Of a stretch of 64,000 nt of DNA, positions 13,901 to 29,252 are shown piece by piece. The notes beneath the pieces were generated by a model, which did not search any database, had not been told where the DNA came from, and was given only the letters and a program-made list of their open reading frames with translations. Every line of letters begins with the position of its first letter. Within the stretch, counting starts at the first letter, position 1. The DNA comes from Bacteroidia bacterium. Its GTDB lineage: Bacteria > Bacteroidota > Bacteroidia > Cytophagales > JAAEPT01. Position numbers and translations under genes: made by a program. The DNA is taken from contig JAUIJC010000014.1 of NCBI GenBank assembly GCA_030431525.1, positions 5,330 to 69,329 on the forward strand, read 5' to 3'.

Positions 13901-16900
13901 AGTCAACTGCACGCTGTCGCCAGCGCAAATCATTCCTGCTGGAGCAGTCGCGGTTACCGTTGGAAGTGGGTTCACGTTCACCGTTACCGAATCACTGTTT
14001 TCACAGCCGTTGGCGTCCATGCCCGTCACCACATAAGTCGTGGTGTTGCTTGGCGAAGCCAATACGGTATCGCTGTCGCTAACATTCAAATCAGTAGTAG
14101 GCGTCCAAGCGTACATCAATCCGCCTTGAGCGGTCAATGTAGCCTCATCACCCAAACAGATGGTGGCATCGTTAGAGGCGGTGATAGTTGGAAGGCCGTT
14201 CACCGTTACAGTCACTTGGGCGGTATCAGTACATCCACCAGCATTGTCCGTCACCACAGTGTAAGTGGTCGTGGTGGATGGTGTAGCAATCACCGTGTCG
14301 CCAGTCGTGGTGTTCAATCCAGTGGCTGGTGACCAAGTGTAATCCGTTCCGCCAGTGGCAACCAATACGGCGCTGTCATCCATACACAAGATGGTGTCGC
14401 TGGTGACAGACAAGTTTGGAATTGGAAGCACCTCAACGTGTACGCTGTCGGTATTGGTACAACCTGTGGCGTTTGTTCCAGAAACCACAAAGGTGGTAGA
14501 GGTGGTTGGCCTTGCCAATGTCGTAGCGCTGTTCGGTGACATTACCTCTCCAGCTGGGGACCAAGCGTAGTTTGAAACGTTGGTGCCCAAAGCAGAAAGG
14601 GTTACGGTGTCACCCGCACAGATGGTGTCACGGCTTGCTGTAGCTGATGATAGTACTGGGTCAACCGTGATGGTTGTGCTTGCGCTATCCTCACAGCCAT
14701 TGCCCGTGGTTACCACAACAGTGTAAGTGGTGGTAGTCGTTGGCGAAGCCACTGGGTTAGCGATGTTATCCGCAGAAAGGCCAGTGCTCGGTGTCCATTT
14801 GTAGGTGCCACCGCCTGTAGCCACAAGCTGTTTTGAGTCACCCAAACAGATGCTGTCCGAAGGCGTTACAGTAACATTTGGCAATGGGTTAACCGTTACC
14901 GTCACAGACTCGCTGGCCTGACAGCCCGCAGGGCTGGTAGCCGTCAATGTATAAGTGGTAGTCGTGGTTGGGTAAGCCAATGTCAAGCTGTCCATTGGGG
15001 TAGCAAGGCCAGTGGCTGGTGTCCACTCGTAAGTGTCCAAAGGCTGACATGCGCCCACCAAGGTAATGGTGTCTCCCTCACAAATGGTTGGGTCTGGAGA
15101 GATGGTCATGTTTGGCTCTGGCTCCACATAGATGAAGATGGAGCTGGTGTCCGAACAGCCGTTGGCATCCGTGCCAGTGACAATGTAAGTAGTGCTTGTG
15201 CTTGGCGTTGCGGAAACGCTTTGGCCAGTAGTGGCAGACAAGCCCGTGCTTGGCGACCAAGTGTAAGTCAAGTTCGGGTCGCTGGCAATCAAAATTGCCG
15301 AGATGCCAGTACAAATCGTGTCTTTAGTTGCCGTGATATTAAAGGCAGGCTTTGGATTGACATTCACTGTAACCGTGGTGGAATCCACACAACCCAAACC
15401 GTCGGTTCCAATCACCGTGTAAGTGGTGTTGGTTGTTGGGAAAGCCTGAACGCTTGTTCCGTTGTCAGCACTCAAAGTGGCGCTTGGTTTCCAAGTATAG
15501 CTGGTAGCACCTGAGGCAGTCAATGTAACAGAGTCACCCTCACAAATGGTTTGGTCACCGTTTGTGGTGATGCTTGGCAAAGCCTGAATGTTGACCATCA
15601 TGCTGTCGGTGTCCTTACAGCCATTCGCATCCGTTACCTCTACCAAATACTTGGTAGAAGTGGAAGGGGAGGCGGTAGGGTTGGAAACAGCAGGATTGTC
15701 CAAGGTCGCCGATGGCGTCCAAGCATAGCTCACGCCACCAGTTGCGGACAATGGAGTGCTTGTGCCGAAACAGATGGTGGTGTCATTGCCAGCTTGTGCC
15801 GTTGGCAAATCGTGAACGGTTACCGTTACGGTATCACGAGCAGTACAGCCGTTGCCGTCCTGAGCGGTCACCACATATTCCGTGGTAGTGCTTGGGAAAG
15901 CAATAGGGTCGCTAATCGTTGTGTTTGAAAGTCCAGTGCTTGGCGACCATGAGTAGTTGATGCCTCCCGTGGCGCCAATTTGTACGCTATCGCCAATACA
16001 AATCTCAGGGTTCTTGGAAGGTGTGATGGTCAACATTGGGTTCACCAATACCGTCAAGGAATCTGAATTTGTACAGCCGTTGGCATCCGTTCCTGTAACT
16101 ACATAAGTGGTTGTCGTAGTTGGGGAAGCCAATGGGTTGGCTATGTTTGGATTGTCCAAGCCAGCTGATGGAGACCATACGTAGGAAACACTGCTTCCAG
16201 AAGCCAACAACTGAGCGTCATCCCCTTGACAGAAGCTTTGGTCGCCATTGGTGGAGATGCTTGGCAATGGGTTTACAGTAATGGTCACTTGAGCTGTGTT
16301 TGAACAGCCAGCTGTGGTTCCTGTTACCGTGTAAGTAGTAGTTGTTGTAGGCGTAGCCGTAGGGTTCGCCACGTTCGGGTCATCCAAACCAGCGCTTGGA
16401 GACCAGCTGTAGGTAGTGGCTCCTGAAGCATTGAGTTGTACGCTTACGCCCTCACAAATGGTTGTGTCATTATTGGTCACTACGGTTGGCAATGGCTGAA
16501 CCGTAATGGTCGAAGTCGCATTGTCTGTACAGCCGTTCGCATCGGTTCCTATCACGGTGTAAGTGGTGGTGGATGATGGAGAGGCCACAGGGTTAGCGAT
16601 GTTGGCGTTGTTCAAATCAGTAATTGGCGTCCACTCATAAGTGGTAGCACCAAAGGCTTCCAACTGAACGTCTTCGCCAGCACATGAGAAATGGTCACCA
16701 TTGGTGGTCACCGTTGGATGTGGGTTGACAGTAATGGTGGTCGTAGCCGTTGCCGAACAACCAATGCCATTTGTACCAGTTACGGTATAAGTTGTAGTGG
16801 TCGTAGGGGATGCGATTGGGTTGGCGATGTTTGGGTCGCTTAGGCCAGTGGCTGGGCTCCATACATAATTGGTAGCGCCAGAAGCAATCAACTGTCGGCT

Positions 16901-17167
16901 TTCGCCTTCACAATAGGCAGTATCCGCAGAAACCGTTAACACAGGAAGTGGATTGACGGTAACGGTCAAGCTCGTTGTATCAGCACAGCCATCTCCTGTG
17001 GTTCCAATCACTTGGTAGGTGGTGGTTGTACTTGGGGAAGCCATTGGGTTGGCAATGTTCGGGTTGTCCAAACCAGTAGCAGGGGACCAAACATAGCTGG
17101 TGGCTCCACTTGCGGTGAGCTGAACATTGTCCGTCTCACAAATGGTTTGGTCGCCGTTGGTGGTCAA
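10961..17167 (-). CDS. SprB-like giant adhesin, C-terminal part: about 16 Ig-like repeats, SprB-type repeats, gliding-motility-associated (T9SS type B) C-terminal domain
   Basis: Repeats TICxGxSVQLxASGxxxYxWSPxTGL..ANPxASPxxTTTYTVTGTxxxGC; PTCYGDANGSITI..GGVAPYEFSL; CTD FYVPNTFSPNGDGVNDVF..YDRWG..GVYYY..GWIEIIR. No signal peptide of its own; joined to 17136-18209 by a frameshift. Confidence 0.9.
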   Translation of the reverse strand: MTTNGDQTICETDNVQLTASGATSYVWSPATGLDNPNIANPMASPSTTTTYQVIGTTGDGCADTTSLTVTVNPLPVLTVSADTAYCEGESRQLIASGATNYVWSPATGLSDPNIANPIASPTTTTTYTVTGTNGIGCSATATTTITVNPHPTVTTNGDHFSCAGEDVQLEAFGATTYEWTPITDLNNANIANPVASPSSTTTYTVIGTDANGCTDNATSTITVQPLPTVVTNNDTTICEGVSVQLNASGATTYSWSPSAGLDDPNVANPTATPTTTTTYTVTGTTAGCSNTAQVTITVNPLPSISTNGDQSFCQGDDAQLLASGSSVSYVWSPSAGLDNPNIANPLASPTTTTTYVVTGTDANGCTNSDSLTVLVNPMLTITPSKNPEICIGDSVQIGATGGINYSWSPSTGLSNTTISDPIAFPSTTTEYVVTAQDGNGCTARDTVTVTVHDLPTAQAGNDTTICFGTSTPLSATGGVSYAWTPSATLDNPAVSNPTASPSTSTKYLVEVTDANGCKDTDSMMVNIQALPSITTNGDQTICEGDSVTLTASGATSYTWKPSATLSADNGTSVQAFPTTNTTYTVIGTDGLGCVDSTTVTVNVNPKPAFNITATKDTICTGISAILIASDPNLTYTWSPSTGLSATTGQSVSATPSTSTTYIVTGTDANGCSDTSSIFIYVEPEPNMTISPDPTICEGDTITLVGACQPLDTYEWTPATGLATPMDSLTLAYPTTTTTYTLTATSPAGCQASESVTVTVNPLPNVTVTPSDSICLGDSKQLVATGGGTYKWTPSTGLSADNIANPVASPTTTTTYTVVVTTGNGCEDSASTTITVDPVLSSATASRDTICAGDTVTLSALGTNVSNYAWSPAGEVMSPNSATTLARPTTSTTFVVSGTNATGCTNTDSVHVEVLPIPNLSVTSDTILCMDDSAVLVATGGTDYTWSPATGLNTTTGDTVIATPSTTTTYTVVTDNAGGCTDTAQVTVTVNGLPTITASNDATICLGDEATLTAQGGLMYAWTPTTDLNVSDSDTVLASPSNTTTYVVTGMDANGCENSDSVTVNVNPLPTVTATAPAGMICAGDSVQLTAQGTGALIANPYTWTPASSLNVSDKDTVTAKPSSTTNYIVSVTDINGCMGYDSVEVEVFSNPNIAVSNDTTICFGDTIQLVAQGGTSYLWTGDGVVSPNSDVTTIIPTTGGTYTVEITDTNGCTNTASVEVTLRTIPTGTAMFDQDTLCYGETATLSLSMDSGFFPNTNGSFTFDNGQSFSGINAIDFSQDTTLVVRFRDNFGCLSTPADTVNLKVLDSLSMDLTVITTPDCSTPGEFTANNFQGGTGSYWVALDDGNFFEVSDTTYSGLLPGLYPVTLKDSYGCYIEETANLLQAFNFDSVLVDPTCYGDANGSITIANFEGGVAPYEFSLNDSTSFGPDSVFNNLSAGNHTIYAKDASGCMVTLNLKLDQPDSLQVLVLDEQHINCLGVDAGDLTIEVKGGIAPYQVDLLGNSYNSDSTFSFDNLPAFSDTLVAMDNLGCTVELPVEITAPEAIEVFITQTTLAEDCKEANGTAVIDSVKNGSGLYLFSLDNGVNYDSQTDIETQMDSLASGKYTLLVQDEVSGCTDTASFSIQNKDGLLIDSVKVTVKAPSCLEVDGQVQLSNLIGNAPYTFALKQDSTMIIDFQADSLLAGSVNGDTVYGGNYIAIVKDVKDCEYTFDAVVPNTIPFEVTNTVAPASCGADNGYIALNISGGKMDYTITLKSEMDSLTHVIATDSIMVDSLTTGVYAMTITDASDEACVIQDTLTVGDLTANALLNITDVTCRDSADGMIEIIRLQNANVVEFGYRFNLNDSTQLGTDSLYTGLSGGNNVLWIEQTRLSDSTSCIYPDRELMYNGITQDSIWTDSIYVWEPDTINAEILGLPSKVEVPDGIVFAHTITGGNGIFEMALDDSTNFFSYEQGIDTLINRFTEVPRGQHIVYVRDQKGCINRFGVEVGTKFYVPNTFSPNGDGVNDVFFIHSLPEGSRFRVYDRWGVRVYQHDSYDNTWDADGVDDGVYYYDLETKIGDFNGWIEIIR

Positions 17168-17410
17168 TACAGGGATTTGGATTAACCGTTACGGTTACTT
17201 GTTCGGTGCCTGAACAGCCATTGGCGTCGGTTCCAGTTACCGTGTAAGTCGTAGTAGAAGTTGGGGAGGCTACAGGGTTAGCGATGTTCGGGTCATCCAA
17301 GCCAGTTGCTGGGCTCCAAACAAAGCTCAATCCAGCTCCTGAAGCAGTAAGCTGGGTATCGTTACCTTCACAAATCGCAACATCAGGAGAAACCGTGATG
17401 GTTGGTTGTG
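13500..17410 (-). repeat. Intragenic array of about 17 diverged ~76-aa Ig-like repeats
   Basis: Recurrent WSPATGL / NIANP / TTTY / GC motifs counted across the two translated ORFs. Boundaries approximate. Confidence 0.85.
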
Positions 17411-18209
17411 GGTTGACGGTAATCGTTTCGGTGATTGTGCTTGAACAAGAACCGTTGTCAATGGTAAGTGTAATCGTCTTTGTACCTGCAGACCCGTAGG
17501 TGATGTTGTGTGGTCCTGCGGTGTTGGCCGTTGGGCTGGAAGCGTCCGCACCAAAATTCCAAGTGTAAGTGGTGGAGCCATCCACACCAGAGGAGGTATC
17601 TGTGAAGACTACCGGCTGACCCATACAGTTTGGGGTGGCGGTAAATCCTGCTCGGAAGTCAGTTCCAGGATTTACGGTAAAGGTCTCGGAGTACACACAG
17701 CCGTTGTCGTCGGTCACATCCACGGAGTAATCGCCAGGCGCTAAGCCTGAAATGGAAGTGCCGGTGGCTCCTGTGCTCCACAAATAGGAATACCCTCCGG
17801 TTCCTCCAGAGGGGCTAATAGAAATACTGCCGTTGTTTTGTCCCAAACATAACTCGTGGGAAACGGTAGAATTCATTGAAAAAGTTGGGGGTTCATCCAA
17901 AAAAACAGATCGGACGTCATCTACAATTAGTCCTTTACCCGCAGCAATAAAGTAGGAGCCAGCAGGTAAGTTGGAGAAAGTATGGGTCGAATCGTTTGTC
18001 GTAATCACAATATTCGTGAATACGATTTGGATCGTGTAAGGCGCCGGACCGCTTAGATGCACTGTAAAGGCACCAGAACTGTCTCCCGGGCAGGTAACCT
18101 CTTGATCAACAACTACACTGTCGATACTAATACCTTGAGCCCACGCCGAGCTGGACATGGACAGAAGGAGCAGAAGGGGTAAGAAATAGCGAGTAAAGCG
18201 TTTATCCAT
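17136..18209 (-). CDS. SprB-like giant adhesin, N-terminal part (signal peptide, SprB repeats, PKD domain, first Ig-like repeat)
   Basis: Signal peptide ..SSSAWAQ; HELCLGQNNGSISISPSGGTGGYSYLWSTG (SprB repeat); FTDTSS..YTWNFG..ITY..GTKTITLTI (PKD). Reading frame is lost after TVTVNP near 17175. Confidence 0.88.
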   Translation of the reverse strand: MDKRFTRYFLPLLLLLSMSSSAWAQGISIDSVVVDQEVTCPGDSSGAFTVHLSGPAPYTIQIVFTNIVITTNDSTHTFSNLPAGSYFIAAGKGLIVDDVRSVFLDEPPTFSMNSTVSHELCLGQNNGSISISPSGGTGGYSYLWSTGATGTSISGLAPGDYSVDVTDDNGCVYSETFTVNPGTDFRAGFTATPNCMGQPVVFTDTSSGVDGSTTYTWNFGADASSPTANTAGPHNITYGSAGTKTITLTIDNGSCSSTITETITVNPQPTITVSPDVAICEGNDTQLTASGAGLSFVWSPATGLDDPNIANPVASPTSTTTYTVTGTDANGCSGTEQVTVTVNPNPCIDHQRRPNHL

Positions 18210-18266: not shown

Positions 18267-18784
18267 ACACATGGTTAACAGAACTGGCGCGCGCAGAAGC
18301 ATGTAAGTCAATAAGCAGTTATCGAAATTTTTAGCAACGATTGTACCACTTTGGACGCCTCATCCAATGTGGTTCATTATCAGCTCTCTAAGTCCTGATG
18401 TGCGATTCAGTCGAAGAGAAGTGGGTTACCAGCTTTAGAAATGAAGTTTTTTAAAAGAAGGTTCCTACAGGTCAAAAAATATGTTGCGAAGTAATTTAGA
18501 ATTTTTCAAAAGGCACAGCTAAATGGAATTTATTCGTGCATTTTTTGGTACAGAGATGTAAAAAAACCTGAAAAAGCATGCTGGTAATGTAAGGAACGTA
18601 CAATTCTTCTCTCAATTTGCTATTTTTACGCCCAATTCCGTTCAATCTGCCTTTTATGCCAAAAAGTGGCTGTGCGACTGATGGTTAGGAAGATTGCTCT
18701 CCAAATGGAATTTCTTCCAAATAGGAAGGTGGGAGGGAACAAAGTAGCCGTGTTAACGACTTTACATTGAAAAGACTTCTAATT

Positions 18785-21562
18785 ATGAATACTTACAACG
18801 ATTACCTCAAGGAGATCGAGGAGCGTAAAGCTCAGGGACTTCACCCGAAGCCAATCGATGGTGCCGAGTTGCTAAGCGAAATCATTGCCCAGATTAAAGA
18901 AGCTGGTAATGCTAATCGCGAAGACTCCCTAAAATTCTTCATTTATAACACCTTGCCGGGCACCACTGCTGCCGCTGGCGTAAAGGCGAAATTCTTGAAG
19001 GAGATCATCCTTGGTGAATCTGTTGTTGAGGAAATCACTCCAGCCTTCGCTTTCGAGTTGTTGTCGCACATGAAGGGTGGACCTTCTATCGAAGTGTTGC
19101 TTGACTTGGCATTGGGCGCTGACGCTGGCATCGCCGCAGAAGCTGCGAAGGTATTGAAAACTCAGGTTTTCCTTTACGACGCCGACATGGAGCGTTTGGA
19201 GGAGGCTTTCAAAGCGGGTAACGCTGTTGCCAAAGAGCTTTTGGAAAGCTACGCCAAGGCTGAGTTCTTCACGGAGCTTCCAGAGGTAGAGGAAAAAATT
19301 GAAATCGTTACGTTCATCGCTGGTGAGGGTGACATTTCCACTGACTTGTTGTCTCCAGGTGCTGATGCACACTCTCGTTCTGACCGTGAGTTGCACGGCC
19401 AGTGTATTTTTGAGCACAACAAGGAAATGCAGAAGGAACTTTCTGCCCTTAAAGAGCAACACCCTGACAAGCGTGTCATGTTGATCGCTGAGAAAGGCAC
19501 CATGGGTGTAGGTTCTTCTCGTATGTCAGGTGTGAACAACGTAGCGTTGTGGACAGGTATCCAAGCCAGCCCATACGTTCCGTTCATCAACATCGCTCCA
19601 ATCATCGCAGGTACTAACGGTATCTCCCCAATCTTCTTGACTACTGTTGGTGTAACTGGCGGTATCGGTGTCGACCTCAAGAACTGGGTGAAGAAGAAGG
19701 ATGCTGAAGGCAACACTGTTCTTGACGAAGCTGGCGAGCCAGTTTTGGAGCAAACTTACTCTGTTGAGACGGGCACTGTCTTGACCATCAACACCAAAGA
19801 GAAAAAGCTTTACAACGGCGACAAGGAATTGATGGACATCTCAGCTTCATTGACCCCACAAAAAGTGGAGTTCATTAAGGCTGGAGGTTCTTATGCTGTT
19901 GTATTCGGTAAGAAACTACAAACCTTTGCTGCCAAGACATTGGGCGTTGAGGCTCCTGTAGTATTCGCTCCTTCTAAAGAGGTTTCTGTAGAAAACCAAG
20001 GTCTTACTGCTGTTGAGAAAATCTTCAACAAGAACGCAGTTGGTACCACTCCAGGAAAAACATTGCACGCCGGTTCTGACGTTCGTGTAGAGGTGAACAT
20101 CGTAGGATCTCAGGATACTACTGGTTTGATGACCTCTCAGGAATTGGAGGCCATGGCTGCTACAACGATTTCTCCAATCGTTGACGGTGCTTATCAGTCT
20201 GGTTGCCACACGGCATCTGTTTGGGATTCCAAAGCGCAAGCGAACATCCCTAAGTTGATGAAGTTCATGAACGACTTCGGTTTGATCACGGCTCGTGACC
20301 CGAAAGGCGTTTATCACTCCATGACTGACGTTATTCACAAAGTGTTGAATGACATCACCGTAAGTGACTGGGACATCATCATCGGTGGTGACTCCCACAC
20401 ACGTATGTCCAAAGGCGTTGCCTTCGGTGCTGACTCCGGTACTGTTGCACTTGCGTTGGCTACTGGTGAGGCGACCATGCCGATTCCTGACTCTGTGAAA
20501 GTTACTTTCAAGGGCGAGATGAAAGGCTACATGGACTTCCGTGACGTGGTTCACGCTACGCAACAACAAATGTTGAAGCAATTCAGTGGTGAGAACGTCT
20601 TCCAAGGTCGCGTAATCGAGGTACACATCGGTACATTGACTGCTGACCAAGCCTTCACCTTCACTGACTGGACTGCTGAGATGAAAGCCAAGGCTTCCAT
20701 CTGTATCTCCGAGGACGAGACCTTGATCGAATCCCTTGAGATCGCTAAGAGCCGTATCCAAATCATGATTGAGAAGGGTATGGACAACGAGAAGCAAGTT
20801 CTTCAAGGATTGATCGATAAAGCGGACAAGCGTATCGCCGAGATCAGATCTGGTGAGAAGCCTGCTTTGACCCCTGACGCAAACGCTAAGTACTACGCTG
20901 AGGTTGTTGTTGATTTGGACGAAATCGTCGAGCCAATGATCGCTGACCCAGACGTATATAACGACGACGTATCTAAGCGTTACACGCACGATACCATCCG
21001 TCCGCTTTCTTACTATGGTGGCGACCGCAAGGTTGACCTTGGTTTCGTAGGTTCTTGCATGGTTCACAAAGGTGACATGAAGATCCTCGCTCAGATGTTG
21101 AAAAACATCGAGTCACAACAAGGTAAGGTTGAGTTCAACGCTCCATTGGTTGTTGCTCCTCCAACCTACAACATCGTTGACGAGTTGAAGGCTGAAGGCG
21201 ACTGGGAAGTGTTGCAGAAATACTCTGGTTTCGAGTTCGACGACAACGCTCCTAAAGGTGCGGCTCGTACGAAGTACGAAAACATGCTTTACCTCGAGCG
21301 TCCAGGCTGTAACCTCTGTATGGGTAACCAAGAGAAAGCCGAGCCAGGTGACACTGTAATGGCGACTTCTACGCGTCTCTTCCAAGGCCGTGTCGTAAAA
21401 GACACTGCTGAGAAGAAAGGTGAGTCTTTGCTCTCTTCCACGCCAGTAGTAGTGCTTTCTACCATCTTGGGTAGAACGCCAAACATCGAAGAATACACAG
21501 CAGCTGTTGAAGGCATCGACTTGACCAAGTTCAAGCCTTCTGGCAAGTTATTGGTGAAGTAA
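18785..21562 (+). CDS. acnB: Bifunctional aconitate hydratase 2 / 2-methylisocitrate dehydratase
   Basis: HEAT-like N-terminus, DISTDLLSPG, GVGSSR, GSQDTTGLMT, QSGCHT, GGDSHTR, GSCM, PGCNLCMGNQ, STRLF. Confidence 0.97.
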   Translation: MNTYNDYLKEIEERKAQGLHPKPIDGAELLSEIIAQIKEAGNANREDSLKFFIYNTLPGTTAAAGVKAKFLKEIILGESVVEEITPAFAFELLSHMKGGPSIEVLLDLALGADAGIAAEAAKVLKTQVFLYDADMERLEEAFKAGNAVAKELLESYAKAEFFTELPEVEEKIEIVTFIAGEGDISTDLLSPGADAHSRSDRELHGQCIFEHNKEMQKELSALKEQHPDKRVMLIAEKGTMGVGSSRMSGVNNVALWTGIQASPYVPFINIAPIIAGTNGISPIFLTTVGVTGGIGVDLKNWVKKKDAEGNTVLDEAGEPVLEQTYSVETGTVLTINTKEKKLYNGDKELMDISASLTPQKVEFIKAGGSYAVVFGKKLQTFAAKTLGVEAPVVFAPSKEVSVENQGLTAVEKIFNKNAVGTTPGKTLHAGSDVRVEVNIVGSQDTTGLMTSQELEAMAATTISPIVDGAYQSGCHTASVWDSKAQANIPKLMKFMNDFGLITARDPKGVYHSMTDVIHKVLNDITVSDWDIIIGGDSHTRMSKGVAFGADSGTVALALATGEATMPIPDSVKVTFKGEMKGYMDFRDVVHATQQQMLKQFSGENVFQGRVIEVHIGTLTADQAFTFTDWTAEMKAKASICISEDETLIESLEIAKSRIQIMIEKGMDNEKQVLQGLIDKADKRIAEIRSGEKPALTPDANAKYYAEVVVDLDEIVEPMIADPDVYNDDVSKRYTHDTIRPLSYYGGDRKVDLGFVGSCMVHKGDMKILAQMLKNIESQQGKVEFNAPLVVAPPTYNIVDELKAEGDWEVLQKYSGFEFDDNAPKGAARTKYENMLYLERPGCNLCMGNQEKAEPGDTVMATSTRLFQGRVVKDTAEKKGESLLSSTPVVVLSTILGRTPNIEEYTAAVEGIDLTKFKPSGKLLVK

Positions 21563-21587
21563 TCAGTTGATTACATAGGATAATGAA

Positions 21588-21619
21588 GAACCCCGAGTTG
21601 AGAGACTCGGGGTTTTTTT
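21588..21619 (+). terminator. acnB intrinsic terminator
   Basis: gaaccccgagt-tgagag-actcggggttttttt. Confidence 0.85.
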
Positions 21620-21847
21620 GGGGATTAGAAGAGTTAAAGAAGTTTTTTATTAAGCTTGCCTTTGGATACTTATTACTTCTGTCGAATTTTATCCTTAAGA
21701 GCTATGATTTGAGGTTCTATAACAAGGAGGTATAGGCTTTCTGAATGGGCTACTTTTATTGCTAAGGAATGAAGAGTAGGTGACTAATTCCATCTTATAC
21801 TATGTCAAAAGATGACATGTATTTATTTTTATTATGGTGTATTTTGT

Positions 21848-22381
21848 ATGGTAAAAAAAGAAATAATTTTCGTTGGAGGTATTCATGGGGTTGGTAAGGG
21901 GAGGTTTTGTGAAGAAATGTCTGAATTTCTCTCTTTTGAACACTTGTCGGCTAGTGAGATATTGAAATGGTCAGAAATAAGTAAACCAACGAATAAGAAA
22001 GTAGAGAGTATCCGCGATACTCAGGAGCGTTTAATTGATGGGATTACTAAGCTTCCTAGTATATCAATCCCATATGTGATTGATGGCCATTTTACCTTGT
22101 TTAACAGGAAGGGTAAAGTAAGTTTGGTGCCAAAGGATGTGTTTGTTAAAATGGGTCCTAAATCTCTAATTGTTTTAACCTATAGTCCCGAGGTGATTTG
22201 CGAGAGGCTGAGGTTAAGAGATGGTGAAAATTATAGTTTGAAGCTTTTAAGTGAAATGCAGGAAGTTGAGGTTAATTATGCTAGGGAAATTAGTGAAGAG
22301 CTTAAAATTCCATTGTTAGAGATGGATAGTCAAAACATTTTAATTCACAAAAAATCTATTATTCAATTATGCGAGTTCTGA
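21848..22381 (+). CDS. Nucleoside-monophosphate-kinase-like P-loop protein (AAA_17/AAA_18, adenylate kinase-like)
   Basis: N-terminal P-loop IIFVGGIHGVGKG, HLSASEIL, YVIDGHF, LID-like ICERLRLRD. Likely start at MVKKE (21848). Overlaps the next gene by 13 nt. Confidence 0.8.
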   Translation: MVKKEIIFVGGIHGVGKGRFCEEMSEFLSFEHLSASEILKWSEISKPTNKKVESIRDTQERLIDGITKLPSISIPYVIDGHFTLFNRKGKVSLVPKDVFVKMGPKSLIVLTYSPEVICERLRLRDGENYSLKLLSEMQEVEVNYAREISEELKIPLLEMDSQNILIHKKSIIQLCEF

Positions 22382-23871
22382 TTGATACTAATATAATTAT
22401 CCATAGGGAGGCTAGTCAAGTGATTAACCAGGATATAGGTTTGCTTTTTAACTGGTTAGATAAACTTGGGTGTGAAAAGTGCTATCATCCCCTTTCTCTC
22501 TCTGAAATCCAGCAGCATAGCAATCCTAAAGTTGTTGCAACTATGGAGGCTAAAATTAAAAATTATAATGTCTTAAAGACTTTAGCTCCAGAAAGCGAAG
22601 AAATAGCTGAAATTCGAAAAAGTGATAAGACGGTTAACGATACTATAGATACCACAATTGTTAATGAGGTTTTTAAAAATAGAGTGGATTATCTTATTAC
22701 TGAGGACCGTGGTATTCATAATAAGGCGAAGAAGTTAAATGTGTCACATAAAATTTTTAATATTGATGATTTTATAGATAAATGTAGGTCTGAGAATCCA
22801 GGTTTAACGAGTTATAAGGTCCTTGCTGTTGAGAAAGAATACTTTGGGAATATTTCAATTGATGATGATTTTTTTGATTCATTTAAAGAAGATTATGTAG
22901 AGTTTCCTTCGTGGTTTTTGAAGAAGTCAGATAATGTGTCTTATATCTGTCAAACCGATGGGAAAATTCGAGCTTTTCTTTATCTAAAGGTGGAGGGTGA
23001 ATCTGAGAAGTATGATGATATCGAGCCAAGGTTTAAGAGTAAGAAGAGATTGAAAATAGGGACGTTTAAGGTTACTTCTACAGGGTTTAGGTTGGGGGAA
23101 AGATTCTTGAAGATAATTATTGATAATGCTTTGGTGAATTCTGTAGATGAGATATATGTTACAGTTTTTGATAAAAGAGAAGATCAGCAAAGGCTTATTG
23201 ATCTCTTAAAAGACTGGGGATTTCAGTACCACGGAATAAAGTCTACAGATAATGGTGTTGAGCAAGTATTTATTAAACCTTTTTTTAATGTTAATGCTTT
23301 AGAATCACCACGTTTTTCGTATCCTTTTATTTCTAGGGGTACTAATAAGTGGGTAGTGCCAATATATCCTAGTTACCATACTGAGTTGTTTCCAGATTCA
23401 ATTCTGAATAATGAGTCTTCACAAGATTTCCAAGAAAATGAACCACACAGAAATGCTATAAGAAAAGTTTATATCTCTCGTTCGATTAATAGAAGTATGA
23501 AGTCTGGAGATCTTGTGCTTTTTTATAGGACTGGTGGCCATTACCATGGGGTTATTTCAACCATTGGAGTTGTAGAGAGTTGTGTAGATAATATCCCCAA
23601 TTTGGAGGCCTTTATCGATCTTTGTCGAAAAAGAAGTGTTTTCAGTGATGAAGAATTGGCAGAACATTGGAATTACAATCCTCTAAATCGTCCCTTTGTA
23701 GTGAATTTTCTTTATGTAGGAACCTTTCCTAAACCTAAAGTGAATTTGATGAAGTTGAGGGAGGATAGAATAATTCAAAATGCTCCTAGAGGTTTTGAAC
23801 TTCTTAGTGATTCTAAATTTGATCAAATAATTAAATTAGGAAGATTAGATGAAAGTTATTTTGTCGATTAA
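22369..23871 (+). CDS. PIN ribonuclease - GNAT acetyltransferase - PUA/ASCH(EVE)-like fusion protein
   Basis: PIN: VLIDTNII (D6), E46, D94, LITED (D113). GNAT: AFLYLK, LKIGTFKV..GFRLGERFL..IYVTVF..LLKDWGF. C-terminal VPIYPSYHTELF..IRKVYIS..GDLVLFYRT..APRGF. Confidence 0.8.
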   Translation: MRVLIDTNIIIHREASQVINQDIGLLFNWLDKLGCEKCYHPLSLSEIQQHSNPKVVATMEAKIKNYNVLKTLAPESEEIAEIRKSDKTVNDTIDTTIVNEVFKNRVDYLITEDRGIHNKAKKLNVSHKIFNIDDFIDKCRSENPGLTSYKVLAVEKEYFGNISIDDDFFDSFKEDYVEFPSWFLKKSDNVSYICQTDGKIRAFLYLKVEGESEKYDDIEPRFKSKKRLKIGTFKVTSTGFRLGERFLKIIIDNALVNSVDEIYVTVFDKREDQQRLIDLLKDWGFQYHGIKSTDNGVEQVFIKPFFNVNALESPRFSYPFISRGTNKWVVPIYPSYHTELFPDSILNNESSQDFQENEPHRNAIRKVYISRSINRSMKSGDLVLFYRTGGHYHGVISTIGVVESCVDNIPNLEAFIDLCRKRSVFSDEELAEHWNYNPLNRPFVVNFLYVGTFPKPKVNLMKLREDRIIQNAPRGFELLSDSKFDQIIKLGRLDESYFVD

Positions 23872-24220
23872 ACCCGAATTTGCTAAAAAGATTTTCCAAG
23901 GTTCAAAAAAATTTGAATTTCGAAGAACCCTTTTCAAAAATAAGGAGGTGGTGAAGATTGTAGTATATGCCTCTGCCCCAATTAGTAAAGTAATAGGTGA
24001 GTTTGAAATTGATTCTATTCTTTATGACGAAATAGATCCCCTTTGGGAAATAACTTCTAGACATTCTGGAATAACAGAGGAATATTATAATGATTACTTT
24101 GTTGGTAAAGACAAGGGGTATGCAATTAAAGTCAAAAACCCAATAAAATACGATGAATATCTTTGTATAAGGGAAACTTATGGTATACGTCCGCCACAGT
24201 CATTTGCTTATTTGAGGTGA
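23849..24220 (+). CDS. ASCH domain protein
   Basis: ILSIKPEFAKKIFQGSKKFEFRR (GxKxxExR signature), VVYASAP..VIGEF, SGIT..Y..YF, PPQSFAYL. Overlaps the previous gene by 23 nt. Confidence 0.9.
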   Translation: MKVILSIKPEFAKKIFQGSKKFEFRRTLFKNKEVVKIVVYASAPISKVIGEFEIDSILYDEIDPLWEITSRHSGITEEYYNDYFVGKDKGYAIKVKNPIKYDEYLCIRETYGIRPPQSFAYLR

Positions 24221-24244
24221 AGATAAAGGATATTCCACCCTCCA

Positions 24245-24309
24245 TAGCGCAAGTCTGAGCGAAAGCGGAGACTTGTACTTACTATTATCCGCTGAGGTCT
24301 CCTGACCTC
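24245..24309. repeat. REP-like palindromes at the right end of the AT-rich operon
   Basis: tagcgcaagtct-gagcgaaagcgg-agacttgtact and gaggtc-tcct-gacctc; the first resembles the gcgcaag/cttgcgc pair at 48872-48955. Confidence 0.5.
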
Positions 24310-24406
24310 TTACTCAAACACCCCCCCCCCAATCTTCCAGGCAAGGAGCCTGTGGATTGGGGGTTTGTTTGGTTAATAGAAGTTGGTTACTGTCAGAGGC
24401 TCCGGT

Positions 24407-26104
24407 CTATTCTTCTTCCCGAACCAACTTCACCAACACCTCCTTCCCGTCAAAGGCGATTCCATATCGGAAAATGTCGGTCTTGCCCTGGGCTTTCAGC
24501 TCGGAAACGTATTTCTTGTCTTCAATCTGCTGAAGGGCGTTTTTGGTGGCGATTTCCAAGTCCTCGCCCTTGTGCTTGGCGACTGTTTTCAGCTCCATGA
24601 CATAAGCCCTTTTGTCATTTTCGGACTTGGGGGAGATGAGCACGTCGGCCCTGCCGAAGCCTGACTCCCTGTTGGACCGGACATGGTGGCTTGTGGAGAG
24701 CTGGGCCAAAAGCCCGAGGATAAAGGAGTGGTACATCTTTTCGGGCTCCCTGTTGTCGAAATCAAAATAGCTGAAGGCCGTTTCGACATATTCCGACAGG
24801 AGGAGCTGAAAGTCTTCCAGGTTTCCTTCCAGCAAAAATTCCAATAAGTAATTGGTGCGTTCGGTGGAAAGTCCGGCCCCCAGCCATTCGGCCATAAAGT
24901 CCTCGTACAAGGTCTTGACCTCCTCATTGGGGATGCTGATGTTGAAGAACCGCTTCCGACCATCCTGATGGTCGAACTGCGCCTTCAGGTAGCCAGCAAA
25001 AACCAATAGACAATAAAGGGCTTCCTCATTGAATTCGTTGAGCGCATCAAAGGAAGTATACTCCTGTAAGGTGCGTCGGACGGGAACGCCGTTCATCATG
25101 TCGGCGAAGTCCCGTTTTACGCCCAAGGAGGCAAAACGCATCTGGTCCTTGATCAGGGTGTTCTGGGCAGTGTTCACCCAGTGGATTTTGAAGCCCTCCT
25201 CGTGGGTGGAAACGTAATTGAGCAAGGACCACGGGTTGTAGATGGTGGTCTGGCCAAAGGTGTAGCCGTTGTACCAATGGGCGACATCCGTGTAATGGCT
25301 CTCCAGTCCGTAATCTGCCAACAGTTTGTGAACCTCTTGGTCGGTCAAGCCGAACTTGTCCGAAAAGGCGTGGCTCAGCACCGTGGAAATAACGGGGTTG
25401 TTCAATCCCGAGAAGATGGACTCCTTGGCGACCCTGAGAATTCCCGTCACAACTCCCTTTTTCAAATGCTCGTTGTCCTTGAGTCCCGCCGACAGGAAGT
25501 TGCGGTAGAAGCCCATGAAGTCGTTGAAAAATCCTTCGGAATGTGCGGAATGGACAGGCGTGTCGTACTCGTCTAGCAGCAGGACGACCTTCTCGCCATG
25601 GTGCGCCTCAAGCATGCGACAGAGAAGCAGCAAGGATTTTTCGAGCTTGGTCTGTTCGGATGTATTTTGAAGCAGTGCTTGGAGTTCTTGTTTGTCGAAA
25701 GGCTCTACCTCCTCGCTCTCCAAAAGGTACTTGTGTCTGACACACTCTCCGTGGACGATATCCAAGATTTTCTTTACGGTCGTTGCCGCAGTCTTTTCCT
25801 TTACGTCCTTAAAGGTCAGGAACACCACCGGATGCCTCCCCTGATGCTTCCATACCTCGGATTGTTGGATGGTCAATCCCTTAAAAAGTGTGGCGTTCTT
25901 CTCGGCGTTCTGCCGCTCGAAAAAATAGCGGAGCATGGAGAGGTTCATCGTCTTGCCGAAGCGCCGTGGACGGGGCAGGAGAATGATTTCTCCAGATGAT
26001 TTTAATACCTCTTCCGCTAAGAGGGTTTTGTCGATATAGTAACGGTCGTCTTCCCGAAGTTTTTTGAAATCCGAGATGCCGATGGGTAATGGTTTGCGCT
26101 CCAT
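24407..26104 (-). CDS. AAA-ATPase-like protein with C-terminal PD-(D/E)XK nuclease domain
   Basis: LPIGISDF..YYIDKT, Walker A RPRRFGKT, Walker B LLLDEYD, TGILR..SIFSGLNN, WYNGY..YNPWS; C-terminal SNRESGFGRADV..VMELK..ALQQI..KKY. Confidence 0.92.
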   Translation of the reverse strand: MERKPLPIGISDFKKLREDDRYYIDKTLLAEEVLKSSGEIILLPRPRRFGKTMNLSMLRYFFERQNAEKNATLFKGLTIQQSEVWKHQGRHPVVFLTFKDVKEKTAATTVKKILDIVHGECVRHKYLLESEEVEPFDKQELQALLQNTSEQTKLEKSLLLLCRMLEAHHGEKVVLLLDEYDTPVHSAHSEGFFNDFMGFYRNFLSAGLKDNEHLKKGVVTGILRVAKESIFSGLNNPVISTVLSHAFSDKFGLTDQEVHKLLADYGLESHYTDVAHWYNGYTFGQTTIYNPWSLLNYVSTHEEGFKIHWVNTAQNTLIKDQMRFASLGVKRDFADMMNGVPVRRTLQEYTSFDALNEFNEEALYCLLVFAGYLKAQFDHQDGRKRFFNISIPNEEVKTLYEDFMAEWLGAGLSTERTNYLLEFLLEGNLEDFQLLLSEYVETAFSYFDFDNREPEKMYHSFILGLLAQLSTSHHVRSNRESGFGRADVLISPKSENDKRAYVMELKTVAKHKGEDLEIATKNALQQIEDKKYVSELKAQGKTDIFRYGIAFDGKEVLVKLVREEE

Positions 26105-26407
26105 GGAGTAAAGATAGGGAAAAGGGCGGGGGAGGTTTCAAAACAAAGCTGAGGGGTTTCATCATTAGTCCTTATTTGAAGGATTAACAGCCCAGCAATT
26201 TTGGGTGAAATTGTATAGCGTTCGAAACTGAGAATCTCATTTCAAATGTGCCAAGGGTGGGGATGTCGCGGTCCGTGTTGGCTTTCAATCAATTTCAAGG
26301 TAAATTGTTTCCCCAAGGGATAGGGGACTACTTTTAGTGTATCCTCTATTGGGTTGGCGGTCAGCTGATATGCCTCATTAGGAATCATCATTCGAAAAAA
26401 TAAGATT

Positions 26408-26785
26408 ATGACTGATAAAGAAAAACTGTACGAAACACTAGGTGAGTTACTTTTTGTAATTGCGAAGGCAGATGGAATCATTCAAAATGAGGAGAGGGAA
26501 GCTTTAGATAAGCTTTTGCAAAAACATTCATGGGCTTCTGAGATTAAATGGTCCTTCAATTATGAGGAGTCGGCTGATTCATCTGCGGAAGCAACTTATA
26601 ACAAGGTGATTAATTTCTGTCATAGCTATGGCCCAACGCCTGAGTATAATGAATTCATAGATGCTATGAGTTTCATTGCTGAGTCATCACAAGGTATTGA
26701 TCAAAATGAGTCTCGAGTAATCAGCTCATTTTCTAAGGACCTTATTGAAAGGTTTCAAAAGGATCTAGATAGACTTAATAATTAA
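26408..26785 (+). CDS. TerB-like (tellurite resistance B fold) protein
   Basis: LLFVIAKADGIIQNEERE and the repeated IAESSQGIDQNE motif typical of TerB; AT-rich. Confidence 0.75.
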   Translation: MTDKEKLYETLGELLFVIAKADGIIQNEEREALDKLLQKHSWASEIKWSFNYEESADSSAEATYNKVINFCHSYGPTPEYNEFIDAMSFIAESSQGIDQNESRVISSFSKDLIERFQKDLDRLNN

Positions 26786-26832
26786 GGCGCTATCGAACAG
26801 CTTCGGTCGCTTTTCATAAAGTACCCAAGTGA

Positions 26833-26877
26833 ATAACCCCAAGAGCATCCCAAATGCTCTTGGGGTTATTTTTTTTG
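26833..26877 (+). terminator. Intrinsic terminator after the terB-like gene
   Basis: ataaccccaagagcat-cccaa-atgctcttggggttattttttttg. Confidence 0.8.
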
Positions 26878-26984
26878 TTCTTACAACACTCATTCAACCC
26901 CTCCACACCCCAAAAAATAATTAAGCCCCACAATTCTCGTTGATAGTTAATAACTTAAGTCTGGACGTAAACCATTCATATTTT

Positions 26985-29252
26985 ATGGCATTTGACATCG
27001 AAATGATTAAAAGCCTCTACGCGAAGTATCCGGAAAGGGTGGAGGCGGCCCGAAAGGTGACGGGGAAGCCCTTGACCTTGGCGGAGAAAATCCTCTACAC
27101 GCACCTTTGGGAAGGAAACGCGACGGAGGCTTATCAGAGAGGTAATGCTTATGTTGATTTTGCTCCAGATCGGATTGCTTGTCAGGATGCGACGGCCCAG
27201 ATGGCTTTGCTTCAGTTTATGCAGGCTGGAAAGTCCAAGGTGGCGGTGCCAACTACGGTGCACTGTGACCACCTGATTCAGGCGAAGGATGGCGCGAGTA
27301 AGGATTTGCAGCATGCGATCAACACCTCTTCCGAGGTCTTCAATTTTTTGGATTCCGTTTCCAACAAATACGGGATTGGCTTTTGGAAACCAGGCGCTGG
27401 TATCATTCACCAAGTCGTGTTGGAAAACTACGCTTTTCCTGGTGGCATGATGATCGGTACGGACTCCCATACGGTGAACGCTGGTGGCCTTGGAATGGTC
27501 GCCGTGGGTGTGGGTGGCGCTGATGCCGTGGACGTGATGGCCGGTATGGCGTGGGAGTTGAAGTTTCCGAAGCTTATCGGGGTGAAATTGACGGGTAAAC
27601 TGAACGGTTGGACATCGGCGAAGGATGTTATCCTGAAGGTTGCTGGTATCCTGACCGTGAAAGGTGGTACGGGCTGTATCGTGGAATACTTTGGCGAAGG
27701 CGCCAAGTCCATGTCCTGTACGGGTAAGGGCACCATTTGTAACATGGGTGCTGAGATTGGTGCGACCACTTCTACTTTTGGTTACGATGAGTCCATGGAG
27801 CGTTACCTGCGTTCCACGGGTCGTGATGATGTGGCGGATGCGGCCAATGGCATCAAGGAGCACCTGACGGGTGATGCTGAGGTGTATGCCAACCCTGAGC
27901 AATACTTTGATCAATTGATCGAAATCAACCTTGATGAGTTGACACCGCATTTGAACGGTCCGTTCACGCCTGACAGGGCTACGCCTGTGGCGAATATGAA
28001 GGATGAGGCTGTTAAAAACGGCTGGCCCTTGGAGATTGAGTGGGCCTTGATTGGTTCCTGTACAAACTCCTCTTATGAGGATTTGACACGCGCCGCTTCT
28101 ATTGTTGAGGATGCTGTGGCGAAAGGAGTGAAGCCGAAGGCGATTTTGGGTATCAACCCTGGGTCCGAGCAGGTGCGTTTCACCGCTGAGCGTGATGGCT
28201 TGTTTACGACCTTCAACAAATTCGATACGACCAAGATTTTCACTAATGCCTGTGGTCCGTGTATTGGGCAGTGGGCACGTCCGGGCGCTGAGAAGCAGGA
28301 GAAGAACTCCATTGTCCATTCCTTTAACCGAAACTTTGCGAAACGGGCCGATGGCAACCCGAATACACATGCCTTTGTAACGTCTCCGGAAATGGTGGCA
28401 GCCATTGCCATTGCTGGTCGTCTGGATTTCAACCCGATTACCGATACCTTGACCAATGAGTCTGGCCAAGAAGTGAAGCTTTCCGAGCCTTCAGGCATAG
28501 AATTGCCATCTGCAGGTTTTGCGGTGGAGGACAACGGTTATCAAGCGCCTGCGGCCGATGGTTCAGGCATTGAGGTGGTCGTGAAACCCGATTCGGAGCG
28601 CCTTCAGTTGTTGTCGCCATTCCCTGCCTACGATGGTAAGGAAATCCAAGGCATGAAGTTGCTCATCAAGGCCAAGGGAAAATGTACGACTGACCACATC
28701 TCGATGGCTGGTCCTTGGTTGCGCTACCGAGGGCACTTGGACAACATTTCGAACAACTGTTTGATTGGTGCGGTGAACTATTTCGGTGAGGCGACCAACA
28801 AGGTGAAGAATCAGTTGGACGGGTCATTCGGCGAGGTGCCTGCCGTTGCCCGTGCGTACAAAGCAGCTGGTGTTCCTACCATTGTTGTCGGTGACGAGAA
28901 CTATGGCGAGGGCTCTTCCCGTGAGCACGCCGCCATGGAGCCACGACATTTGGGTGTTTGCATTGTATTGGTGAAATCCTTCGCACGTATCCACGAGACG
29001 AACCTGAAAAAGCAGGGTATGCTCGGGTTGACCTTTGCTGATCCTGCGGACTACGACAAGATTCAGGAGGACGATACTTTCGATACCATCGATTTGACTT
29101 CTTTCGCGCCAAATAAGCCATTGACCTTAAAAGTCACGCACGCCGATGGTTCTACGGATGAGATTGTTTGTAACCATACCTATAACCACAGCCAGATTGA
29201 GTGGTTCAAAGCGGGATCTGCGCTGAATTTGATTAAGCAGCAGAATGCTTAA
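26985..29252 (+). CDS. acnA: Aconitate hydratase (mitochondrial-type, AcnA family)
   Basis: [82 protein letters not shown]. Confidence 0.95.

Follow-up and report, generated by a model that had tools for sequence, protein, structure and literature searches.

A PIN-GNAT-EVE, ASCH and kinase gene cassette between acnB and acnA of a Bacteroidia bacterium is very probably a copy of the candidate system PDC-M11

Results

Three overlapping genes downstream of acnB

This study concerns a cassette of three genes in a 64,000-nt stretch of DNA (hereafter, the window) from a Bacteroidia bacterium (contig JAUIJC010000014.1, positions 5,330 to 69,329, forward strand). The genes encode a small kinase, a protein in which PIN, GNAT and PUA-like domains are fused, and an ASCH protein. 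Their positions in the window are as follows.

21848-22381, forward strand: gene 1, small P-loop kinase (AAA_17), accessory gene of the cassette; 177 aa, from the list of open reading frames (ORFs)
22369-23871, forward strand: gene 2, PIN-GNAT-PUA-like (EVE) fusion, predicted effector, corresponding to PDC-M11A; 500 aa
23849-24220, forward strand: gene 3, ASCH protein, corresponding to PDC-M11B; 123 aa

An earlier reading of the sequence (the original prediction) had described an operon with overlaps of 13 and 23 nt. The ORF coordinates bear this out: genes 1 and 2 overlap by 13 nt (22369-22381) and genes 2 and 3 by 23 nt (23849-23871). Gene 1 has an alternative, longer reading from position 21812 (189 aa); the ATG at 21848, which gives 177 aa, fits the homologues. 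A scan for sigma-70 promoters was uninformative (10 sites versus 10.2 expected), and an Rfam scan of positions 21400-27000 returned only sub-threshold matches (MicC, 28 bits versus 90; cobalamin, 21 versus 31.5), which were taken as chance.

The cassette corresponds to a catalogued system

Gene 2 matched the PADLOC model PDC-M11A (PDLC04422) with an E value of 1.8e-212, its residues 1-499 aligning with positions 1-500 of the 501 positions of the model. Gene 3, which adjoins gene 2 on the same strand, matched PDC-M11B (PDLC04425) with an E value of 1.7e-48. Because these alignments are full-length, spurious matches to PADLOC or to the phage proteins described below are very unlikely. A scan of the whole genome of this organism found a single copy of PDC-M11. 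Judged by these matches, the locus is almost certainly a copy of the known (PIN)-GNAT-EVE + ASCH + AAA_17 cassette, which PADLOC lists as PDC-M11.

The original prediction had referred to a published neighbourhood of this composition, and this was correct. In the passages that deal with it, Bell, Wolf and Koonin (2020) describe a (PIN)-GNAT-EVE operon that nearly always has an ASCH gene and often an AAA_17 gene, note its linkage to type I restriction, propose a toxin-antitoxin (TA) or defence role, and credit Iyer et al. (2013); according to the same passages, no such module had been characterised at that time. The relevant part of the Payne 2024 preprint introduces 145 PDC systems, which go back to genes found inside known defence systems and are stated to be untested candidates. 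Two papers name PDC-M11 and, in the passages concerned, merely list it as PADLOC output. Our literature search, whose coverage took in few subscription journals, found no experimental study of PIN-GNAT-EVE, PDC-M11 or GevTA (the related phage pair described below). Because the operon had been described by Bell et al. (2020) and named PDC-M11 in PADLOC, the cassette is not new; the original prediction had allowed that a match to a named system would remove its novelty but not its function. The "writer/reader/cutter" mechanism proposed there is likewise, in essence, the published hypothesis.

Gene 2 encodes a fusion of PIN, GNAT and PUA-like domains

The domains of gene 2 were located as follows.

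22369-22803, forward strand: PIN domain, residues 1-145, from fold matches and conserved acidic residues
22825-23313, forward strand: GNAT domain, residues 153-315, with the acetyl-CoA loop at G239-F246, from Foldseek
23326-23868, forward strand: PUA-like domain (EVE/ASCH fold), residues 320-500, from Foldseek

The AlphaFold2 model of gene 2, for which 58 homologues were aligned, had a mean pLDDT of 90.2, and a separate model of residues 1-148 (PIN) had a pLDDT of 87.5. As listed above, all three folds were predicted. The top Foldseek match of the PIN model was VapC15 (4chg, TM-score 0.65), and further matches included HARP RNase P, Utp24/Fcf1, Utp23, Nob1 and other VapC chains. The acidic set D6, E46, D94 and D113, which had been pointed out from the sequence, is present on this VapC-like fold and does not vary among the 36 homologues that are at least 48% identical. 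When homologues down to 28% identity were included, D6 was retained in 50 of the 58 sequences, E46 in 50 (as E or D), D94 in 49 and D113 in 51. The middle domain matched GNAT enzymes including Naa60, PaiA and Naa50 (TM-scores 0.5-0.63 on the target). The acetyl-CoA loop noticed earlier, GFRLGERF, is also there, with G239 conserved in 54 of 58, G243 in 54 of 58 and E244 in 56 of 58 homologues.

The top Foldseek matches of the whole gene 2 model were chains of ZmASCH, an ASCH protein of Zymomonas mobilis; these matched the C-terminal domain with TM-scores of 0.72-0.78 on the target. The model therefore makes it clear that this domain belongs to the PUA-like superfamily. Its nearest solved fold is ZmASCH and not an EVE protein, so that its EVE label is provisional. 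Direct Pfam searches of gene 2 gave EVE at an E value of 0.0034, below the gathering score, and PIN_3 at 0.02, and matched no GNAT family in gene 2 itself. Across the 58 family members, Pfam found PIN_3 in 22, EVE in 19 and Acetyltransf_1 in 9. A gene 2 profile gave only marginal matches to PDB sequences (Naa50, E value 0.033; 2ar1, 0.21), with no close solved relative among them. The C-terminal domain of gene 2 and gene 3 do not show homology at the sequence level despite the similar fold, because a profile-profile comparison with hhalign gave a probability of only 1.3. A complex prediction of the gene 2 and gene 3 proteins scored 0.00 (mark 0.32), and no inference is drawn from it either way.

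It should be mentioned that in the database copy of the gene 2 protein (P0001, 483 aa) the first 17 residues are missing, D6 among them, because it is started at the GTG at 22420. These 17 residues are conserved in all 36 homologues compared, which places the true start at the ATG at 22369. The AGGGAGG that precedes the GTG is in fact made up of conserved His-Arg-Glu codons of gene 2. In other words, automatic gene calling can remove the first catalytic residue of the PIN domain.

Gene 3 encodes a protein of the ASCH family

Gene 3 aligned with ZmASCH (PDB 5gus and 5guq) over residues 3-123 with an E value of 8.5e-17. The Pfam ASCH model (PF04266) gave a score of 17.7, where the cut-off is 21.2. 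Residues G18, K20, E23, R25, Y40 and S118 do not vary among the 37 homologues compared. The first four of these fit the ASCH motif, which we take to be G-x-K-x-x-E-x-R. The assignment of gene 3 to the ASCH proteins in the original prediction is thus supported by both the ZmASCH alignment and the invariance of K20 and E23. One ASCH protein, YqfB, is an N4-acetylcytidine amidohydrolase. In addition, gene 3 matched the extra domain of the NCBIfam model "L22/unknown domain fusion" with an E value of 7.7e-13. No helix-turn-helix or ribbon-helix-helix family was found in gene 1 or gene 3 by the Pfam and NCBIfam scans.

ZmASCH (ZMO0922; structures 5GUQ, 5GUS, 5Y6B and 5Y6C), to which gene 3 is closely related, has a measured activity. 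As far as the nuclease assays of Kim 2017 go, it binds nucleic acids and shows weak, Mg-dependent cleavage of single-stranded RNA only; neither single-stranded nor double-stranded DNA was cut. The assays used 300 nM enzyme and 3 nM RNA, and Tyr47, Lys53 and Ser128 contributed to cleavage. The equivalents of Tyr47 and Ser128 are retained in gene 3 as Y40 and S118. In contrast, the position of Lys53 is occupied by Ser46, with a lysine (Lys47) one residue on.

Gene 1 encodes a nucleoside monophosphate kinase-like protein

Gene 1 matched Pfam AAA_17 with an E value of 2.4e-15. A profile built from 36 homologues matched chains of AK1, AK5 and UMP-CMP kinase at E values of about 1e-8, and AK6 at about 2e-3. 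The P-loop residues G11, H13, G16 and K17 are invariant, as are D79-G80-H81 and R124; R120 and D125 are nearly so. Because of the AK1 and UMP-CMP kinase matches, and because the P-loop and the LID arginines are conserved, gene 1 looks like an active enzyme of the nucleoside monophosphate (NMP) kinase type and not an AAA+ ATPase. The NMP-kinase-like assignment made earlier is therefore upheld by both the AAA_17 and the kinase profile matches. Gene 1 fell far below every NCBIfam kinase equivalog cut-off (best score 24.3 bits versus 207.6), and no PADLOC model matched it. Thus the fold class and catalytic motifs are those of housekeeping adenylate and UMP-CMP kinases, but in the phylum sample described below the family was found only beside the cassette. 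An analogy of gene 1 and the PIN domain with the Fap7/AK6-Nob1 pair was considered, and is weakened by the preference of the profile for AK1 and UMP-CMP kinases.

The three genes co-occur and are fused in some genomes

The gene 2 family comprises at least 5972 proteins with E values of 0.001 or less among 8000 candidates scored. It has 1900 clusters at 50% identity, with members in bacteria, archaea, phages and plasmids. We surveyed 80 loci from species-representative genomes, with 53-66% identity to gene 2, covering many bacterial phyla and two archaeal metagenome-assembled genomes. A gene 3 homologue lies beside the gene 2 homologue in 76 of the 80 loci, and the two frames overlap in 55 of these 76. 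Such an arrangement is far beyond chance. In three of the four remaining loci (L072, L075 and L092), the sequence ends within about 800 nt after gene 2. A gene 1 homologue was found in 52 of the 80 loci, directly upstream in 48 and downstream of gene 2 in 3; six of the 28 loci without it have less than 650 nt of upstream sequence. No other neighbour family was common to more than 6 of the 80 loci. The conservation of the trio, which the original prediction had made a point to be checked, is thus borne out.

A second survey covered 301 genomes sampled evenly across the phylum, including the genome studied here. Gene 2 was found in 11 of them and gene 3 in 17; the latter include all 11, and the two genes are adjacent in every one. 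Gene 1 was found in 6 genomes, all of them among the 11 and all with gene 1 adjacent. These counts include related genomes (four of the six with gene 1 are from one family) and are not independent.

Fusions join the same proteins. P0128 is a PIN-GNAT-EVE-ASCH protein whose ASCH part is 41% identical to gene 3, and P0204 and P0231 are ASCH-GNAT-EVE proteins. An N-terminal extension of 116-123 residues occurs in 14 of 150 listed representatives of the gene 2 family; in the two extended proteins that were scanned (P0143 and P0146), Pfam found ASCH in the extension, of a different, DUF3850-like type. An ASCH domain and a kinase share one open frame of 317-329 aa in four genomes of the phylum sample (G203, G299, G060 and G112). 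In G203, this ORF (L098, 1378-2355, reverse strand; 325 aa) has Pfam AAA_17 at residues 159-273 and overlaps the end of gene 2. Because PIN-GNAT-EVE-ASCH and ASCH-kinase fusions exist, we propose that the three proteins act together.

Some loci hold additional or damaged genes. An ORF of about 310 aa without a Pfam family lies between the effector and ASCH genes in L063, L087 and L090; its cluster covers 6 loci in all, and the L090 copy is the one that was scanned. L062 and L064 have a similar gap of about 980 nt between these genes, with a different ORF. In L035 (6945-8023), two ORFs of 140 and 215 aa, without a Pfam family, lie between the kinase and effector genes. Copies of gene 2 or gene 3 contain internal stop codons in G091, G252 and G178, and the cassette appears to be decaying in these genomes.

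Phages, plasmids and archaea carry relatives of the cassette

When phage genomes were searched at the protein level, 16 records, from lambdoid phages among others, had GNAT-EVE and ASCH pairs in which PIN is lacking. In Escherichia phage PhiR47_2 (GenBank PV340567.1), the pair lies directly after cI and is annotated "GevT toxin" and "GevA antitoxin". Residues 153-499 of gene 2 are 39% identical to GevT (E value 1e-64), and gene 3 is 49% identical to GevA (E value 1e-45). The order of the two phage genes and their 23-nt overlap are as in genes 2 and 3. A literature search for the source of the GevT and GevA names found no paper. Matches were also found in 32 plasmid records.

The archaeal prophage psiM100 (L101, 3001-4846) encodes a full PIN-GNAT-EVE protein (ORFD) and a gene 3-type ASCH protein (ORF5, 39% identity), with a 23-nt overlap. 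Most of ORFD is within an annotated "inserted fragment IFa", and ORF5 is common to phage psiM2. Two contigs of archaeal metagenome-assembled genomes (L078 and L091, labelled Altiarchaeales and ainarchaeum) encode gene 2 homologues of 54-56% identity; this suggests transfer between domains, or mis-binning.

The cassette lies in foreign DNA between acnB and acnA

The surroundings of the cassette in the window are as follows.

18767-21562: acnB, housekeeping gene directly upstream
21589-21619, forward strand: intrinsic-terminator-like hairpin of acnB (21589-21614) and T-run, upstream limit of the low-GC segment
21563-26939: inserted interval of about 5.4 kb between acnB and acnA, holding the cassette and two further genes
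24407-26104, reverse strand: AAA-ATPase_like/PDDEXK_9 gene, 565 aa, from Pfam
26408-26785, forward strand: TerB-like gene, 125 aa, Pfam E value 1.7e-4, below the cut-off

In steps of 400 nt, the GC content is 0.31-0.35 over positions 21600-24199, compared with 0.45-0.51 in acnB and 0.49-0.53 from position 24200 onwards. The low GC content relative to acnB, on which the original prediction had drawn, is therefore confirmed. The content drops from 0.48 to 0.34 at the acnB hairpin. The operon had also been said to start right after the acnB terminator. A hairpin with a T-run is indeed present, but gene 1 starts about 230 nt past it, so that the wording was approximate.

In two relatives (G006 and G008), acnA lies within about 200 nt after acnB, compared with about 5.4 kb in the window. 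Because acnA directly follows acnB in these relatives, about 5.4 kb has been inserted here. A search of 30 relatives did not find the DNA of this island in any of them. No notable direct or inverted repeats flank the island, and no integrase was found among the ORFs of the window; the intergenic DNA of the relatives is too diverged for the island boundaries to be aligned. The best protein matches come from Flavobacteriaceae-type organisms, in keeping with the low GC content. Judged by this foreign composition, the insertion between acnB and acnA, the 53-66% identity across phyla and the copies in phages and plasmids, the cassette is a horizontally acquired one.

Two features near the cassette should be noted. 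The AAA-ATPase_like/PDDEXK_9 protein has a normal GC content and no PADLOC match, and a copy about 70% identical in DNA lies on another contig of the genome (L009). The TerB-like gene lies in a stretch of 0.37-0.40 GC just before acnA and is possibly another foreign piece.

Discussion

As an explanation of the locus as a whole, we favour an intact, horizontally acquired copy of a known cassette that serves as a TA-like or abortive-infection unit with an RNA-directed effector, and judge this somewhat more probably right than wrong. Taken separately, a conflict or TA-like role is likely, and RNA as the target is an even call. The analysis shows the identity of the cassette, its folds and conserved catalytic residues, the co-occurrence and fusions of its genes, their patchy distribution and their foreign composition; toxicity, RNA as the target, the acetylation chemistry, the part played by ASCH, the substrate of the kinase and phage defence are inferred. 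Under this explanation, the three proteins would act as one unit in a self-contained module. Gene 2 would be the effector: its PUA-like domain would dock on a nucleic acid, for which RNA, for instance tRNA or rRNA, is the most probable candidate, its GNAT domain would move an acetyl group from acetyl-CoA, and its PIN domain would cut RNA. The ASCH protein, which is translationally coupled to gene 2, may restrain the effector, or may reverse or complete its action in the same complex. The NMP-kinase-like gene 1 would be an ATP-dependent accessory. We prefer an RNA-acting, TA-like module because the structural neighbours of the PIN fold are RNases, because ZmASCH cuts only single-stranded RNA, and because GNAT toxins acetylate aminoacyl-tRNA (Bell et al. 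2020). The match of gene 3 to the L22 ribosomal-protein fusion model leans the same way.

Several observations weigh against this explanation. At least one acidic residue of the PIN domain is replaced in 8-9 of the 58 diverse gene 2 homologues, so PIN activity is not shared by the whole family. In the assays of Kim 2017, ZmASCH acted as an RNase weakly, at a 100-fold excess of enzyme. An ASCH protein that is fused in cis to the effector, or that occurs in G213 without gene 2, is at odds with a classical labile antitoxin. The labels "toxin" and "antitoxin" of the phage pair go back to one GenBank annotation whose basis could not be traced, and no experiment on any member of the cassette family was found in the literature. 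No defence island surrounds the copy studied here, which is placed between two housekeeping genes and whose other neighbours have no PADLOC match. Of the 140 ORFs that lie nearest to the cassette in the 80 loci, a minority carry restriction-type domains (ResIII, 5; Methylase_S, 4; HSDR_N, 2; N6_N4_Mtase, 2) and housekeeping families are common. This census is limited to the 25 families that occur most often, and its PADLOC list is taken up by redundant type I specificity models. Because it has no baseline control, we do not claim enrichment of defence genes.

A more specific proposal, which we regard as tentative, is that the cassette forms one machine using both acetyl-CoA and ATP: it would mark and then cut nucleic acid, with the ASCH protein as an eraser or second nuclease and the kinase-like protein as a switch. 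The ASCH-kinase fusions, the fusions of ASCH to gene 2 and the ASCH gene without gene 2 fit less well with the simpler idea that the ASCH protein and the kinase detoxify. The literature search found no experimentally characterised precedent in prokaryotic immunity for an acetylation-based mark-and-cut machine. If the proposal is true, acetylation of nucleic acid or aminoacyl-tRNA would be a defence chemistry with a dedicated ASCH partner.

The main rival of an RNA-directed module is a DNA system resembling restriction-modification, which we consider unlikely. The GNAT domain would acetylate a DNA base, the EVE and ASCH domains would read the modified DNA, and the PIN domain (or the ASCH protein) would be a nuclease for DNA in the wrong state, acting in cooperation with type I restriction. 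Bell et al. (2020), in the passages concerned, trace such a proposal to Iyer et al. (2013); they also report that type I restriction-modification genes are often linked, and that ASCH domains fused to HsdS and helix-turn-helix-ASCH fusions occur. The PDC systems themselves were defined by embedding in restriction-modification, BREX or DISARM systems, as the part of the Payne 2024 preprint on their derivation states. In our survey, HsdM-like ORFs occur in the flanks of 6 of the 80 loci and hsdS is directly upstream of the cassette in G203 (L098). In G213 (L100, 3413-7975), hsdM, a KilA-N gene, a gene 3-type ASCH gene (5877-6284; E value 2.1e-57 to the profile) and hsdS stand in a row, that is, with ASCH between hsdM and hsdS; no gene 2 was found in that genome at E values of 1e-20 or less. 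Moreover, the portion of a 2026 preprint that treats BapA describes this ASCH-like enzyme, encoded in a defence operon, as acting on modified DNA of phages. Against this rival, the PIN domain has RNases as its structural neighbours, ZmASCH cut neither form of DNA in the assays described above, and 74 of the 80 loci have no HsdM-like gene within the available flanks. No restriction gene is near the cassette in the window, and the phage protein is labelled a toxin even without a PIN domain.

A purely selfish addiction cassette, which would stabilise itself or its carrier DNA and give no protection from phages, is less probable still. In its favour, the cassette is small, self-contained and translationally coupled. 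It is scattered horizontally into unrelated contexts, including housekeeping neighbourhoods such as acnB-acnA, it occurs on plasmids, and some genomes hold copies with internal stop codons. What argues against pure addiction is the lambdoid phage pair directly after cI, the restriction genes linked at some loci, and the guilt-by-embedding origin of the PADLOC entry. In phage lambda, the exclusion genes rexAB sit directly after cI.

A housekeeping module of the host for RNA modification or ribosome maturation, by analogy with the PIN nucleases, GNAT RNA acetyltransferases and AK-like ATPases of ribosome biogenesis, is highly improbable: the fold matches of the PIN domain to Utp24/Fcf1, Utp23 and Nob1 and that of gene 3 to the L22-fusion model are outweighed, in our view, by the presence of gene 2 in only 11 of 301 genomes of the phylum, the absence of the island from the 30 relatives, its foreign GC content and insertion relative to two of them, and a gene 1 profile nearer to AK1 and UMP-CMP kinases than to AK6.

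Compared with known systems, the cassette differs from each in some respect. Genes 2 and 3 match the A and B models of PDC-M11 and are adjacent on one strand, as the definition has it; that definition has two genes, and the kinase gene is without a PADLOC model. The domain order, the ASCH partner and the optional AAA_17 gene are those of the operon of Bell et al. (2020) and Iyer et al. (2013), as far as the passages concerned describe it. Bell et al. class the AAA_17 product as an AAA+ ATPase, whereas gene 1 aligns with adenylate and UMP-CMP kinases including the LID arginines; they call the last domain EVE, whereas among solved structures the C-terminal domain of gene 2 is nearest in fold to ZmASCH. 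Their operons are linked to restriction, and the copy studied here adjoins no restriction system. GevT and GevA of PhiR47_2, known from annotation, are homologous to genes 2 and 3. However, GevT lacks the PIN domain, the pair lacks the kinase, and the phage genes follow cI whereas the present copy is chromosomal.

The classical VapBC pairs and the GNAT-toxin pairs of the TacAT/AtaRT type (with toxins such as TacT and AtaT) share with the cassette a PIN fold with four acidic residues, a GNAT fold and a small coupled partner. In VapBC and GNAT-ribbon-helix-helix pairs, however, the upstream gene encodes a DNA-binding antitoxin; here a 177-aa kinase is encoded upstream and an ASCH protein downstream. 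Also unlike the classical pairs, the cassette has a kinase as well, and its PIN and GNAT domains form one protein together with a PUA-like domain. Finally, in the Brig3/BapA operon an ASCH-like enzyme is an accessory in an anti-phage operon, and the authors of the 2026 preprint liken it, in the part concerned, to ZmASCH. BapA, a two-barrel glucosyl hydrolase, acts on phage DNA and has a DNA glycosylase as its partner; it is set beside gene 3 here by description only.

The mechanism is a question about the whole family and not about this locus in particular: any of the thousands of copies would serve to settle the chemistry, and this one adds nothing unique to it. That chemistry would show whether acetylation of nucleic acid or charged tRNA serves microbial conflicts, and what the ASCH protein does. 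The present analysis adds that the kinase of gene 1 is like an NMP kinase and specific to the system, that ASCH-kinase and effector-ASCH fusions exist, and that gene calling can err at the start of the PIN domain. The domain calls and the operon structure of the original prediction stand, on the strength of the folds, the profiles and the co-occurrence described above.

Other features of the window

Downstream of gene 3, a stretch of 27-30 nt within positions 24282-24311 recurs at 93-100% identity on two other contigs of the genome, and may belong to a small element, either a repeat or a terminator. Upstream of acnB, positions 10961-18209 (reverse strand) encode two large repeat-rich surface proteins of 2068 and 357 aa. 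The motif at the end of the 2068-aa protein is one that we take to be typical of Bacteroidota gliding proteins and proteins sorted by the type IX secretion system.

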